A stretch of 64,000 bases of DNA from Patellaria atrata CBS 101060. Its lineage: Eukaryota. The notes under the pieces were generated by a model. It was not told where the DNA came from. It saw nothing but the letters and a program-made list of their open reading frames with translations, and searched no databases. Position 1 is the first letter of the stretch. Every line of letters begins with the position of its first letter. Where the stretch lies: NCBI GenBank assembly GCA_010093705.1, contig MU006093.1:889301-953300 (forward strand), written 5' to 3'. Shown here piece by piece: positions 54,036 to 61,892 of the stretch. The position numbers were made by a program, and so were the translations under genes.

Positions 54036-54814
54036 CTATTCTTCGTCTTCATCGTCCTGAACACCTGATTGTGCTTTTAGGGGACTTTGAACCATCATGC
54101 CCTTGTATCCGGTAATCGGCTCCATCTTGTTTTCCTGTTATTCAATAGTAAGCCACTGCCTTCTAAAAGCTAGGACACATGGATCCCTTAGACCGCAACA
54201 TACCCTCATGTATTCTTCTGTAGCCTCCTGCCATTCCTTCGTCATTGACCTAGGAGGAGGTCCAGCGAAATGTCTTGTAGTTGCGAAGACGATGAAAGAG
54301 ACAAATACACCGGCAAAAGTATAGAGAATGACTTTTCTCGTCTCCCCCGGCGGCGCCTCCGCGCGGGGTCCATGTGGACCAAATGCAATCCAGTAAGCTA
54401 AAGGTAGTGTCAGCAAGCGGTTTTTTCAAGAAATAATGCGTACGCAGTGAAGAGAATCGTAACGGTACAGCTCAGAAGGTATCATCTATGAGCTGGAATC
54501 TCGATGCGCTAAACGACGGTAGCTTCTATGCCGGAAATAGCACACATACCCGCTTTCTTCTCGGCCAAGGTAAGTTCATGCCAGTCAGCCTTCATTCGAT
54601 CCCTCAACTGCATCCACAAGTCTGCCTGTTCCTGAGGAGGCATCCCCTCCCACCTCTTCTCGATATTGGCCAGAGTCGGGTTAGAGATTGCATGGGCTGC
54701 TCGGGTTTGTTGTTGGATGCATAGAGCTGGCGAAGCTTTCACAGCGCCACGAGACGCGGTGGAGGAAAGGAAGGAGGTCGAGCTTCCCGCTCTCAGGAGA
54801 GAAGTCCGAAGCAT
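54036..54814 (-). CDS. COX5: Cytochrome c oxidase subunit V (COX IV family)
   Basis: Mitochondrial presequence, AHAISNPTLANIEKRWE, AYWIAFGPHGPR, MTKEWQEA. Two introns (first 54398-54549). Confidence 0.93.
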
Positions 54815-56488
54815 GCCAGGCAGAGTGGAGAGGAACCAAGGAGGAAGGAAATGAACTAAAAAGAGAAATTACCAAGCCAGGCTCCCCGTGGAGATCCAAT
54901 TGATGGGTTGAAGAGCGCAACTGTTGATGTGGTGCGGAGCTGGATGACGAGGAGGTTGTTGTTTGAGGTGGTGAGACTTGGTGGAAGCGAAAATCATTCG
55001 AGCAACCCAAGCGTGTTCTTTGTCCCGTCAGACCAATCAAATGGCTTAGTTTACTACCTAGGTAGAGCTACCTTAACTTTGAAGTGTCTCCTTCCCGTCT
55101 ACCTTACCTTTCTCTGTACCCTAAAAGAACACAATGTCCATTGCCCTCGTCAGAATATATAGAAGCCATATTCACGACGAAGTCTCCAGCGCACAGTACA
55201 GTACAGTACAACTCACTTTAGCACAACAATTAGGAATAAGGGCACCTTGAAATTCGATCTAGGGTTTGAAAGCAGTCGTTCTCACGAACATCGACCCTAT
55301 CCTGTACGGAGGTACATCTAATCTTTTTTTTTTAATTTCTATAAGCTCTTCCATCTTCCTATTATATTAGTCGGGCTAAAAACTACATTGGATTACACAG
55401 CGGGAATCGCCCATGTATCCTATATTTTCAAACATATACAGTATGCGTGACTGACCAGTTATTAAAATCAAAAGAAACAAAACACTCTTCATTCCGGATC
55501 AGTCGGGATTACAGTAAGAAAAAGCAATTTGGTCTTCATGTTGCGTCACATGTCAGCTAAAATGCGTAATATTCTCACACAGAGAAAAATAGAACCATCC
55601 TTCTTTTGGCCTTAACATGACTGACAAATAGACAACGAAGAGTCATACCATAGTCACAAGGTCTTGGTTTTGTCACCCTACCTTATTCTTGATTTCCACC
55701 GTCCTTCTCCGCTCGCCGTCTGCATATCGCTCAAACGGGCCCTAATATTACAGAACGCATCAGAGTCTTAGAACTACCTTAGCCTTCCAAATTTAATGTA
55801 CGCAGGTACGACCCCTAGAAATCAACGAGTGCTCCAAAGATATCTCGGGAATACACGGGATATTGGCACGGAGCCACGATCAAGGAAGCAGAACTCGAGA
55901 CTCTGGATTTTCTTTCATAGTCGAACAACAGTTTGAGGTAACTCCCAAGTCCCGGAGTGAACCGGAGGCTGGGCGAGTGGTAGAAAGGAAGAGCGCAGAT
56001 GTTTTCCGAGGTCCGACATAGAGAATGGTAATTCGGATAACAGAAGAAAAGCTGTGCTGTACTGTACATCCAGGCATCGTATCCGAGTTCTCGTGGCGAA
56101 GAGGGATTTACAACCGCGTACGGTATCCTCGTGATAGCTGCCTTGAGCTTAAGTGCTTGACAAACATTCCAGATGGAGGAGGGGGAGGTGTCTGTGGTGT
56201 AGATGTCCGTGGCTTCGGATGTGCCCATCATGATTGGTCTCTCTTGTGTGACGTTGTACCCCTCCATCAAAATAAAATGCTCTGCCCCGCTGCCTTTCTT
56301 CGGCCTCAACAACTCATCACTTTTCTTCCCTTAATTCTTCTCACTTCATTGAGAATCTCCAATTCATTAAGAGAGCCCTGAACAACTTTTATCAAACTCA
56401 ATTGTCCGTCGTGAGACCCAATCCTTACAACTTAACAGGAACAAGCACCTTACTAACTAACATTCGATACCTTTAGTCTTCACCCAAC

Positions 56489-57935
<1,447 letters not shown>

Positions 57936-59023
57936 GAAATGGGACAATGCGAGCTCCAACTGAGTAAGCTATGAGATTGTCCGTTAAATTTCACTGGAAT
58001 AGCTCAATCGCTTGCGAGCGTTAGAAGATATTCTTGCTGGTTGCTCAAGTGAACGTAGAAAAAGGTTACAATGTGTATAGAAATGAATTAGATTCCTCAT
58101 ATGTCGACCCAAACTCAAAATTTCCGATTCCAAACAGGAATCTGTATGCAGACAACAGATGATTTGCAATGTTTTGTGATGTAAAGCACTCGAGTGACTC
58201 GACGTTAGAACTGATTAGAGAGCTTTTGTTGGTTATAATGTCACCCCATGAAACTGGCCGCTAGCGGGGTTTAGTTCTGACTTCTAGCGAAACCCGGCCG
58301 ATTCCAGCTTTCACTAATCGCTTCCATTACGACCGTACTCCGTAGTTCTACCTTACCTCGGGACGCCTAGAAACTATTCGCGACGGGAACCTACCTACTT
58401 CCTACCTTCAGCTCCTTACCTTGCAGAGACCTTCAGTATCACCTTGCTCTTATTCGTCCCTAATCACTTACACCTCTTAAGTACATCCTCAGCCACGCTT
58501 ATGATTATTGGACTGACCTTTGATTCGTTATCCCTAATTCAAAGAAGTCCAAGCCAAAGGGATTAGAATCCGTACAAAAAGCACTCTAAGTTTTTGAAGA
58601 ACGTGTACAGTACCGTACGTGCTTTAGAACTAGCTGTACATAGTCAAAACCGGTATTTATTACATGAGTAAGTCACTCGGGTCTTGCCCATCTCGTATTA
58701 TCAGCCAGCTCTACTTCTACTTTGATACTGTTTCAGCTGTTGTTTCTATTTCTTTCAGTTGCTTTCAGTCATTTTCTAATCCCTTTTCCCGAACCCGGAT
58801 CTATCTCTCTGGTATACATTCCTTGATCTATCCACTATTCAACTTCTAAAGATCAAAGTACGACGATAATGACGTTCTGATTATTGAACTCCCTTCTTTC
58901 GAAGACTGACCTAAACCTATGCTGCAGTAATTACTGAGTAAAGAATCAAACAGGGAGATGAGCCGGTGACGTTAAAGAAGCGTTTGCCAGCTTCTAAATC
59001 ATCTGAGGGAAAGCTGAGATATT

Positions 59024-61892
59024 ATGGACGTCGACACGTTGTTCATGGGTGACGGCTCAGTCTTGAATACGACAGAGACCAATGGCGCTCCTACTACTGT
59101 CGACCCTGCTTTCCTTGATGCAAACCTGGCTGCGGGGATAATTCGCAGTTCAAAGTCCTCGAACACTTTCTCAGATACTTCAATGAAGTCTTCTTCTTCT
59201 GATAGCGAAGAGGAACACGAGGTCCTCGATTATGTTCGGCAACCAAGTCCAGAAGTCGTGATTCCAACGTCACGATCAGTAAAACTCCCTTACACCTCTT
59301 CAAGGTCCGGTCTAGTCTACGATGTACGGATGAGATTTCACGCAGAGATAGTTAGCGAATACGCTGATGCTACGGACGTACATCCTGAAGATCCCCGGCG
59401 AATCTTGGAGATATATGAAGAACTACTACACGCCGGTCTCATCGAGGAAGACCCCGCGGAACCGGGGACGGCTCATGAATATACCCTCAAGAGACTTCAA
59501 GCGCGGGAAGCTACGGGTGCAGAGATTTGCCTGGTCCATAGCAAACGACACTTCAAATGGGTCCGTGATCTAGAAAGTAGGTTATGTATCTCTTACATAG
59601 AAAGGGCTTGGTTAAACTTTTACCAGGCATGACACGAGACGAGCTTGTTGATCTGGGCAATCAGATGGATTCTCTTTATCTCCATGGCTCCACCTTTTTT
59701 TGTGCTCGCCTCTCAGCTGGTGGTGCTATTGAAGCATGTCGGGCAGTGGTAACAGGGCACGTCAAGAACTCGATCGCAGTTATTAGACCACCTGGACATC
59801 ACGCAGAACCAAAGAAGCCAGGCGGTTTCTGCCTCTTCAACAATGTTAGCATCGCTGCAAGGGTGTGTCAAGCGGACTACCCTGACCTATGCCGAAAAGT
59901 CCTAATCCTAGACTGGGACGTTCATCACGGGAATGGTGTCCAGGAAGCATTTTATGATGATCCCAATGTCCTTTATATCTCCTTACATGTCCATAAGGAT
60001 GGGACATTCTATCCAACCGGACCGACGGGAAATCACACTTACTGTGGTGGGCCGTCAGCAATAGGGAAGAATGTCAATATCCCATGGAGTCGTCACGGAA
60101 TGGGGGATGGAGATTATATGCTCGCTTTTCAAACTATCATTATGCCAGTAGCTATGGAGTTCGACCCAGACCTCGTGATAATCTCTGCAGGCTTTGACGC
60201 TGCGGAAGGAGACACTCTTGGTGGATGCCATGTATCACCGGCTTGCTATGCACATATGACCCATATGCTCATGTCTCTAGCTCATGGGAAGGTCGCCGTA
60301 TGCTTAGAAGGAGGTTATAATCTCCGTTCTATTGCCAAATCTGCGCTCGCAGTAACACGGACGTTGATGGGGGAACCTCCTGACCGACTAGAGAATCTCA
60401 TAGCTACAGATTCCGGTGCAGAAGTCATTGATCTCGTAATAAAGCAGCAGTCGCGCTTCTGGAAATGTCTATATCCAAAAACAGAATCCCGCGCTGTTGT
60501 GAAAGGCAACCCCATCCACGATATACTCCGTGAGTGGCAGTCGATGCTCTTGGGCTCTGAATACAATATGTCAGAGTTGTTCATACTTCGAGAGGAGATC
60601 TCTCCTTCATTTTCAAAGCAGGTTCTAGCAACGTATGTGCACTAATATTATAGAATTGGTCCTCTTCTTGACACCTTCGGCAGAGAAAACTACGCCCACA
60701 GCGGTCCTCTCTTAGTAATCGTCCATGATCCACCACAAGCTAATGGACAAGCACACCATCGAACTGGCCTTTTGGATCTTCACAACACTCATCTGGTACG
60801 TGACAAGTGCAGAGATGTACTGACTGTCCGCTGACGTTTGACAACAAGGCTGATGAGACTAAGACCTATATTGACTGGGCCTGCACACACGGGTTTGCCG
60901 TAATAGACGTCAATATACCAAAGCAGATAACTGGCCTTGAGGTAAGAGTCTATTATACGAAGTTTGCCCTAAACTCAACGCTGTATAGGACCCCTCGGTG
61001 TCTGAAGAAAGTGCGGAAAAGCACACTCAACTATCTAGGGATTTGCTCCAATACATCTGGGAGAATTATATTGAGTAAGTATCAAAACTGAGTTTGAAAT
61101 ATTATACTAAATGTGCTCTAGGATCAATGACTCTCAACAGATCTTCATGATGGGTGTTGGCGCGGCCGGTGCACATGTCCTTCACCTACTTAGCTCGAAT
61201 GGTATGAAGCACTGCTAAACCTTTGTTGTTTGCAATATTAACGAAATCTAATCCTATTGTTTGGTAGAGGAGATAATGGATCGAGTAGCACATGTGATAA
61301 ACTTTGTAGCGGATAATGCTCTCCTCGCCGTACGTCGACAGACAGACGATGCGAGCGCTTGGTACTGGAGGGTAAGTGCAGTTCTCGCCTTTCTTGGACC
61401 GTTCCGTCTTTCCCAATTCATTACATCTCTAACTTCATTCTCGTTGGAAGGTCATGATCTTATGCCGTATAGACTATATCCGATACCTTGCTGACGTACT
61501 CGTAGAACTCTCATGTTTTTGTCGCTAACAGCCATTTGGCCTGGGACCCAGAGCGAAAGAAGCGCAAGAAGTACGGAAACATCATTAAATCTCCGTATGA
61601 TGGTATAAACGATATGTTGTATGCGCATAGGCATGATGTGACTACGTTCCTAGACCAGTCAACCCAAGAGTGGCAAAAGGGACAGACCGAACAGCAGAGA
61701 CGTAAACGTAAAGAGTTGAACAGCAACTTGCTTAATGCTTCTACTCATCTCCAAGAAATCACTTCTACCAGCGACGAAAGAAGTGGGCTGAGAAGCCCAG
61801 GTGGTCCACCCATTGGAATGTTCGGAGTCTCAGCCGGTCCGTTTGGAGGAGTCCGCCAGCAAGGCCTGGGTGGTGGTAGGGAGATCAAGTAG
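59024..61892 (+). CDS. HDA1: Class II histone deacetylase (Hda1/Clr3) with C-terminal Arb2-like domain
   Basis: HPEDPRRI, IRPPGHHAE, DWDVHHGNG, SAGFDAA, LEGGY. Multiple short introns in the 3' half. Confidence 0.93.

Follow-up and report, generated by a model that had tools for sequence, protein, structure and literature searches.

Does the GAPDH gene of Patellaria atrata CBS 101060 encode, besides the ordinary cytosolic enzyme, a second form that would be carried into peroxisomes by a targeting signal (PTS1) lying behind its stop codon? The question is raised by the 64,000-nt stretch of contig MU006093.1 analysed here (hereafter, the window), for which the initial annotation had proposed a signal of this kind, reached by translational readthrough.

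The GAPDH gene and its stop codon

The gene model comprises the following features (window coordinates):

56489..57935, + strand: GAPDH gene, 6 exons, all introns GT-AG, 337 aa
56489-56500, 56571-56620, 56681-56744, 56855-57539, 57590-57760, 57904-57935, + strand: the GAPDH exons of the model
57761..57903, + strand: last intron (intron 5), 143 nt, phase 1, GTAAGT...CATAG, placed from homologue C-termini
57933..57935, + strand: GAPDH stop TAG, the proposed readthrough site (from sequence, gene model and homologue C-termini)

The Pfam domains Gp_dh_N and Gp_dh_C on exon 4 assign the product to the GAPDH family, and a search with exon 4 gave a single match in the genome, a first look that a distant paralogue could escape. 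The closest named homologues of the protein are mostly from Dothideomycetes, at 85-89% identity. Its normal C-terminus is DGNA, which is not a PTS1. The TAG at 57933-57935 is the true stop, since among 71 homologues with the C-terminus present 30 share its exact last 18 residues; none of these 71 annotated proteins ends in a PTS1. Introns 2-4 are bridged, with 0 other letters, by a spliced contig (run X3, record 10) that ends at 57730, upstream of intron 5 and the extension, and RNA support thus covers introns 2-4. Deep runs X1 and X2 carry the region unchanged, an agreement that is not independent because both come from one sample, possibly the source of the same DNA. A 159-nt contig of run X4 spans 57906-58064 unchanged; it is no evidence on expression, since its RNA or DNA type is unstated and it contains no splice joint.

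A hidden PTS1 behind the stop

57936..57971, + strand: in-frame extension EMGQCELQLSKL, 12 sense codons
57963..57971, + strand: cryptic PTS1 tripeptide SKL at the end of the 12-codon extension
57972..57974, + strand: second stop, TGA, which leaves SKL C-terminal (from sequence)

The description of a TAG followed by 12 codons that end in SKL was accurate: X-EMGQCELQLSKL and a stop are read at 57933-57974 in frame with the GAPDH model, the codons after TAG being GAA ATG GGA CAA TGC GAG CTC CAA CTG AGT AAG CTA, then TGA. At the local base composition, 0.00036 of random extensions end in SKL and 0.003 in a canonical PTS1 ([SAC][KRH][LM]). Within the window, none of 73 long open frames has a PTS1 behind it, and the share of stop-to-stop segments with one at their end is 20 of 5196 (0.004). 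SKL is given among the commonest Pex5-dependent signals of an ascomycete in the available part of PMC13343957.

Conservation in fungal relatives

A scan of metagenomes with the pattern of the GAPDH C-terminus gave at least 118 loci, 119 with the window's own, and a stop could be read in 118 of the 119. Among the loci listed, 45 were of eukaryote type; one was dropped because a contig end cuts it (L039) and four because they are without the fungal-type last helix (L045, L076, L081, L111), leaving, besides the window gene, 39 relatives that form 28 clusters at 90% clustering.

The check that the initial annotation had suggested, conservation in orthologues, gave a positive and patchy answer: in these listed loci a canonical hidden PTS1 is found in 6 of 28 clusters (SRL three times, SHL, AKL and ARL), a hidden PTS1 in 9 of 28 when P[KRH]L is also counted, and none in 19 of 28, against a null of about 0.003 (shuffle nulls of 0.0028 for canonical signals and 0.0033 with P[KRH]L); binomial values overstate the independence of these counts, because the clusters are related to one another. 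The counts, also that of the 19 clusters with none, are of in-frame extensions only. With clustering at 97% they become 6/34 canonical and 15/34 with P[KRH]L, and at 80% 5/25 and 6/25, again for the listed loci. The two other frames of the listed fungal loci hold a PTS1 in 0/39 and 0/40 cases, and the listed GAPDHs of non-eukaryote type (mostly bacterial) with a complete extension in 0/64. PKL drives import as a PTS1 in Histoplasma (PMC13343957, in part).

The window extension is itself related to some of these. It shares 12 of its first 18 nucleotides with extensions of the ESGQSQAMPKL type in relatives; among 20000 shuffles, 116 reach this level, and the 9 listed loci that match best all end in a PTS1. 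By this comparison the window extension is homologous to PTS1-bearing extensions of the ESGQ...PKL type. The codons for the K and L of the PTS1 differ synonymously among relatives. Taken as a feature of the sequence, then, a cryptic PTS1 behind the GAPDH stop is confirmed as real and conserved.

A tree built from 37 of these 40 fragments, all short, in which a single branch of 31 is well supported, gives no order of gains and losses, and a further search for fungal orthologues found 74 loci in genome contigs, all with bacterial titles, and 0 in viral contigs. Two closely related GAPDH types were seen on the way: L003/L026, which have no last intron, a similar stop context and an extension that stops after 3 codons, and L022/L057/L085, which have the last intron and hide SHL. 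These are possibly paralogues, or sister species of which one has lost the signal.

The stop codons also bear on a different route to the extension, A-to-I editing of UAG to UGG (Trp) in sexual tissue, by which the frame would be opened in the RNA. TAG is the commonest stop in the eukaryote-type loci (26/43 listed), and TAG stop-loss editing is documented in Sordariomycetes (PMC13123824, in part). The same source, however, ties such editing to Sordariomycetes, whereas the nearest named homologues here are mostly Dothideomycetes; the UAG is predicted to lie in a stem rather than in a hairpin loop; and some relatives hide a PTS1 behind TAA and TGA stops. We regard editing as extremely improbable.

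Stop context as a candidate stimulating signal

57936..57944, + strand: 3' stop context GAA ATG GGA, homologous to GAA TCA GGA or CAA TTA GGA of relatives

The mismatch with the UGA-CUA readthrough motif that had been pointed out for this gene is real: its stop and context read TAG GAA. Two other contexts are described for UAG, the type I context of tobacco mosaic virus (TMV), UAG-CAR-YYA, with the yeast consensus UAG-CAR-NBA (PMC4615788, PMC4973966), and the type III context of gammaretroviruses, UAG-G with a downstream pseudoknot (PMC4615788), in the parts of these articles available to us. The type I context is matched exactly by two relatives, L090:160-207 (-) with TAG CAA TTA and L024:782-829 (+) with TAG CAA TCA, and at 5 of 6 positions by five more clusters, which have G at +4 (GAR TCA). 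The window gene, in contrast, matches CAR-YYA at 3 of 6 positions and CAR-NBA at 4 of 6, with ATG in the place of YYA, which leaves it outside type I; among the first six codons, this one alone (TCA versus ATG) is wholly unlike its counterpart in the relatives.

Among the listed loci, TAG-(C/G)AR-YYA occurs in 7 of 28 clusters, against a null of 0.004, for a motif that was defined after the data had been seen. All 12 listed rows with serine at this position encode it by TCA, which suggests from the sequences a constraint at the nucleotide level. The extension behind the exact CAA TTA context of L090 ends in SRL. A recognised PTS1 is missing from three of the seven clusters that have the motif (two of these three end in SVL), and five of the nine PTS1 clusters are without the motif; an association between motif and PTS1 is not established, Fisher p being 0.012 with clustering at 97%, 0.17 at 90% and 0.56 at 80%. 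Genome-wide the motif is not enriched (84 matches versus 145 for a reversed control). As a side observation, L023:90-137 (-) and L024:782-829 (+) have distinct extensions, each ending in SVL with a basic residue before it, and this could be a non-canonical PTS1.

From these sequences it is likely that a TMV-like UAG-(C/G)AR-YYA was the ancestral stimulus of GAPDH readthrough, and the context of the window gene would be a partly lost or decayed form of it. A broader proposal, that a cellular counterpart of the TMV readthrough signal, UAG-(C/G)AR-YYA-G(G/C)A, possibly together with a small hairpin formed by the extension, operates in the GAPDH genes of filamentous ascomycetes, is one that we make tentatively and consider quite possible, though short of probable.

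The ATG that has replaced YYA lies in frame at 57939, three bases past the stop, and could in principle serve for reinitiation, which would yield a free 11-residue peptide ending in SKL. An ATG at this codon is, however, found in 0 of the 13 listed motif-type extensions of relatives, and a free SKL peptide would have no apparent function; reinitiation has next to no probability in our estimate.

RNA structure downstream of the stop

57942..57982, + strand: a lead only: 57942-57948 may pair with 57976-57982 in a 7-bp stem that begins 6 nt past the TAG

Like type III contexts, the window gene has UAG, then G, then a purine-rich stretch; compared with them, no significant downstream structure was found for it under pseudoknot-free folding, in which the sequence after the stop showed no greater stability than its shuffles (z of -0.48, -0.51, -1.41, +0.40 and -0.71). 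Across the 14 loci folded, z ran from -3.29 to +1.83. The extension of L023 folds well (z -3.25). In the relatives with PKL, a 9-bp hairpin is paired in 54 of 54 cells, all changes being outside the stems or compatible with G-U pairing; it is unproven, because no pair is changed on both sides and every shuffle equals its score over the 6 distinct rows.

Splice routes to the PTS1 frame

Peroxisomal GAPDH of Ustilago maydis arises by alternative splicing (PMC3798556, PMC3798809, each in part; the U. maydis cases are repeated in PMC10688622 and PMC12316961), and a similar event could join the coding sequence of the window gene to the SKL frame with no need of readthrough. The initial annotation had stated that the splice options tried in the last intron miss this frame, which stands for the normal intron-5 donor, from which the PTS1 was reached by 0 of the 13 AG acceptors tested between 57860 and 58060. 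Non-consensus donors (GTTAAA at 57787, GTCGAT at 57918 and several GC) alone reach the frame and on paper give SKL or AKL. The relatives L022, L090 and L091, which have the last intron, lend some substance to splicing, since the AG of YYA-G/GA is an in-frame acceptor in them. The window gene, however, is without an acceptor at this site because ATGG/GA stands there; L052, L068 and L089 have no last intron, yet keep the motif, and look genomic (the frame is interrupted about 44 codons upstream of the match); and most of the routes would cut into the enzyme's final helix. The gene resembles U. maydis GAPDH in enzyme and proposed destination and differs from it in that no consensus-donor splice route was found with the acceptors tested, and we give very little credence to splicing as the source of the SKL form.

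Companion genes in the same genome

Two other glycolytic genes of this genome carry PTS1 sequences. In PGK (G000:C2:1834568-1838299, minus strand), AKL stands in frame 14 codons past TAG-CTC. A GTAAGT donor overlaps the PGK stop; an intron of 27 nt from it would lead to this AKL too, and introns of 203-290 nt to a second AKL, so that on paper the signal could be reached by readthrough or by splicing. TPI (G000:C9:28766-31978, minus strand) has an overt ARL C-terminus once its 52-nt last intron is removed. In five control genes (enolase, pyruvate kinase, two aldolase-family genes and a second TIM-family gene) no hidden PTS1 was found (0/5). Two separate Pex14_N matches (one in G000:C6 and one in G000:C10) indicate that the peroxisomal import machinery is present.

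Gene order and comparison with known systems

54138-54868, - strand: cytochrome c oxidase subunit gene, COX4 (Pfam), divergent from GAPDH
59018-60645 and beyond, + strand: Hist_deacetyl + Arb2 gene (histone deacetylase with Arb2-like domain; Pfam), directly downstream of GAPDH

The combination of Hist_deacetyl and Arb2 domains is one that we take to mark HdaA. In Aspergillus nidulans, gpdA and hdaA have the adjacent numbers AN8041 and AN8042 (PMC11502334, PMC9604699, in part). Because an HdaA-type gene follows GAPDH in the window, as this numbering would have it, we infer conserved gene order and orthology with gpdA; the window GAPDH, which is also the one match found in its genome, is the probable orthologue of A. 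nidulans GAPDH.

The readthrough-derived peroxisomal GAPDH of A. nidulans was reportedly described by Freitag, Ast and Bolker in 2012. The initial annotation had invoked this precedent, and it is named in two reviews, each available in part: A. nidulans GAPDH acquires a PTS1 through readthrough (PMC4973966), and readthrough targets GAPDH, PGK and TPI (PMC3798809). The two systems share the enzyme, the PTS1 in frame behind the stop and the accompanying PGK and TPI signals. They differ in fungal class and in PGK, which in A. nidulans is spliced (PMC3798809, PMC4973966), whereas in the window genome it has the in-frame AKL described above. In our analysis the cryptic PTS1 is thus the published A. 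nidulans case in a probable orthologue, and the supplement of the 2012 paper may already list this lineage or context. In the open literature, a scope that excludes that primary paper and its supplement, no account of a CAR-YYA-like context for fungal GAPDH was found, and the supplements of PMC4207609 contain no mention of GAPDH.

The window gene is also comparable with the UGA-CU(A) class (U. maydis Tpi1 and other enzymes, human LDHB and MDH1), in which a small share of a cytosolic enzyme gains a PTS1 (PMC4207609, in part), and is unlike it in that the stop is UAG-GAA. That article also gives a readthrough of about 1% as enough for human LDHB, and its U. maydis reporters leaked less at UAG than at UGA. 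Proximity labelling in Histoplasma puts GAPDH among the cytosolic proteins (PMC13343957, in part), as one would also expect if a minor share of the enzyme were peroxisomal.

Proposed mechanism and its significance

We consider it probable, at roughly four chances in five, that low-level readthrough of the UAG yields a 350-aa GAPDH ending in SKL that is imported by Pex5 and serves peroxisomal NAD+/NADH balance, with readthrough, its rate, import and role all argued from the sequence. One GAPDH mRNA would thus give two proteins: most ribosomes would end at UAG and make cytosolic GAPDH, and a small share would insert a residue there, read 12 more codons and end at UGA, and the longer form with its SKL end would be taken into peroxisomes. 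There it would probably act with readthrough or spliced PGK (AKL) and with TPI (ARL). The initial annotation had read the locus in this way, and the reading draws support from the relatives, the PGK and TPI signals, the lack of a credible splice route and the A. nidulans reviews. GAPDH mRNA is generally abundant, and as the YYA context has decayed, weak leakage at the UAG-GAA of such an abundant message is the probable source of readthrough, perhaps with help from a downstream stem. A role in peroxisomal NAD+/NADH balance has been proposed (PMC9549241, PMC3798556, in part).

What counts against readthrough is a context other than the proven UGA-CU(A), the lower leakiness of UAG in U. maydis reporters, the loss of the YYA that relatives keep, the lack of a significant fold after the stop and the 19 of 28 listed clusters without a hidden PTS1. 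Two of these points, the lost YYA and the clusters with no PTS1, would suit a vestige, that is, an extension inherited from an ancestor with working readthrough which, with YYA lost, now gives too little extended protein to matter. The YYA position as the sole wholly changed codon among the first six would fit such a loss, as would the clusters without a PTS1 and the L003/L026 type, which has a similar context and stops after 3 codons. Against this, the frame is still open and has the strongest tripeptide at its end, though the gene is only about 85-90% identical to its nearest homologues; the PGK and TPI signals are intact; and 5 listed clusters have a PTS1 without the motif. A vestige is unlikely on this balance, and readthrough of the UAG is preferred.

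If the TMV-like proposal is true, it would give fungi a second readthrough code beside UGA-CUA, and it is a candidate for the non-UGA readthrough signal left open by PMC4207609. Natural variants for testing it are at hand in CAA TTA, CAA TCA, GAA TCA and GAA ATG; as the last of these, the window gene is without YYA and retains SKL, so that the signal is directly testable. With signals for GAPDH, PGK and TPI in one genome, the locus would add a further fungal lineage to those in which glycolytic enzymes are cryptically targeted to peroxisomes, and isoforms of this kind are overlooked by annotation and transcriptomics. What deserves to be followed up is the TMV-like context of the relatives and its apparent loss in the window gene.
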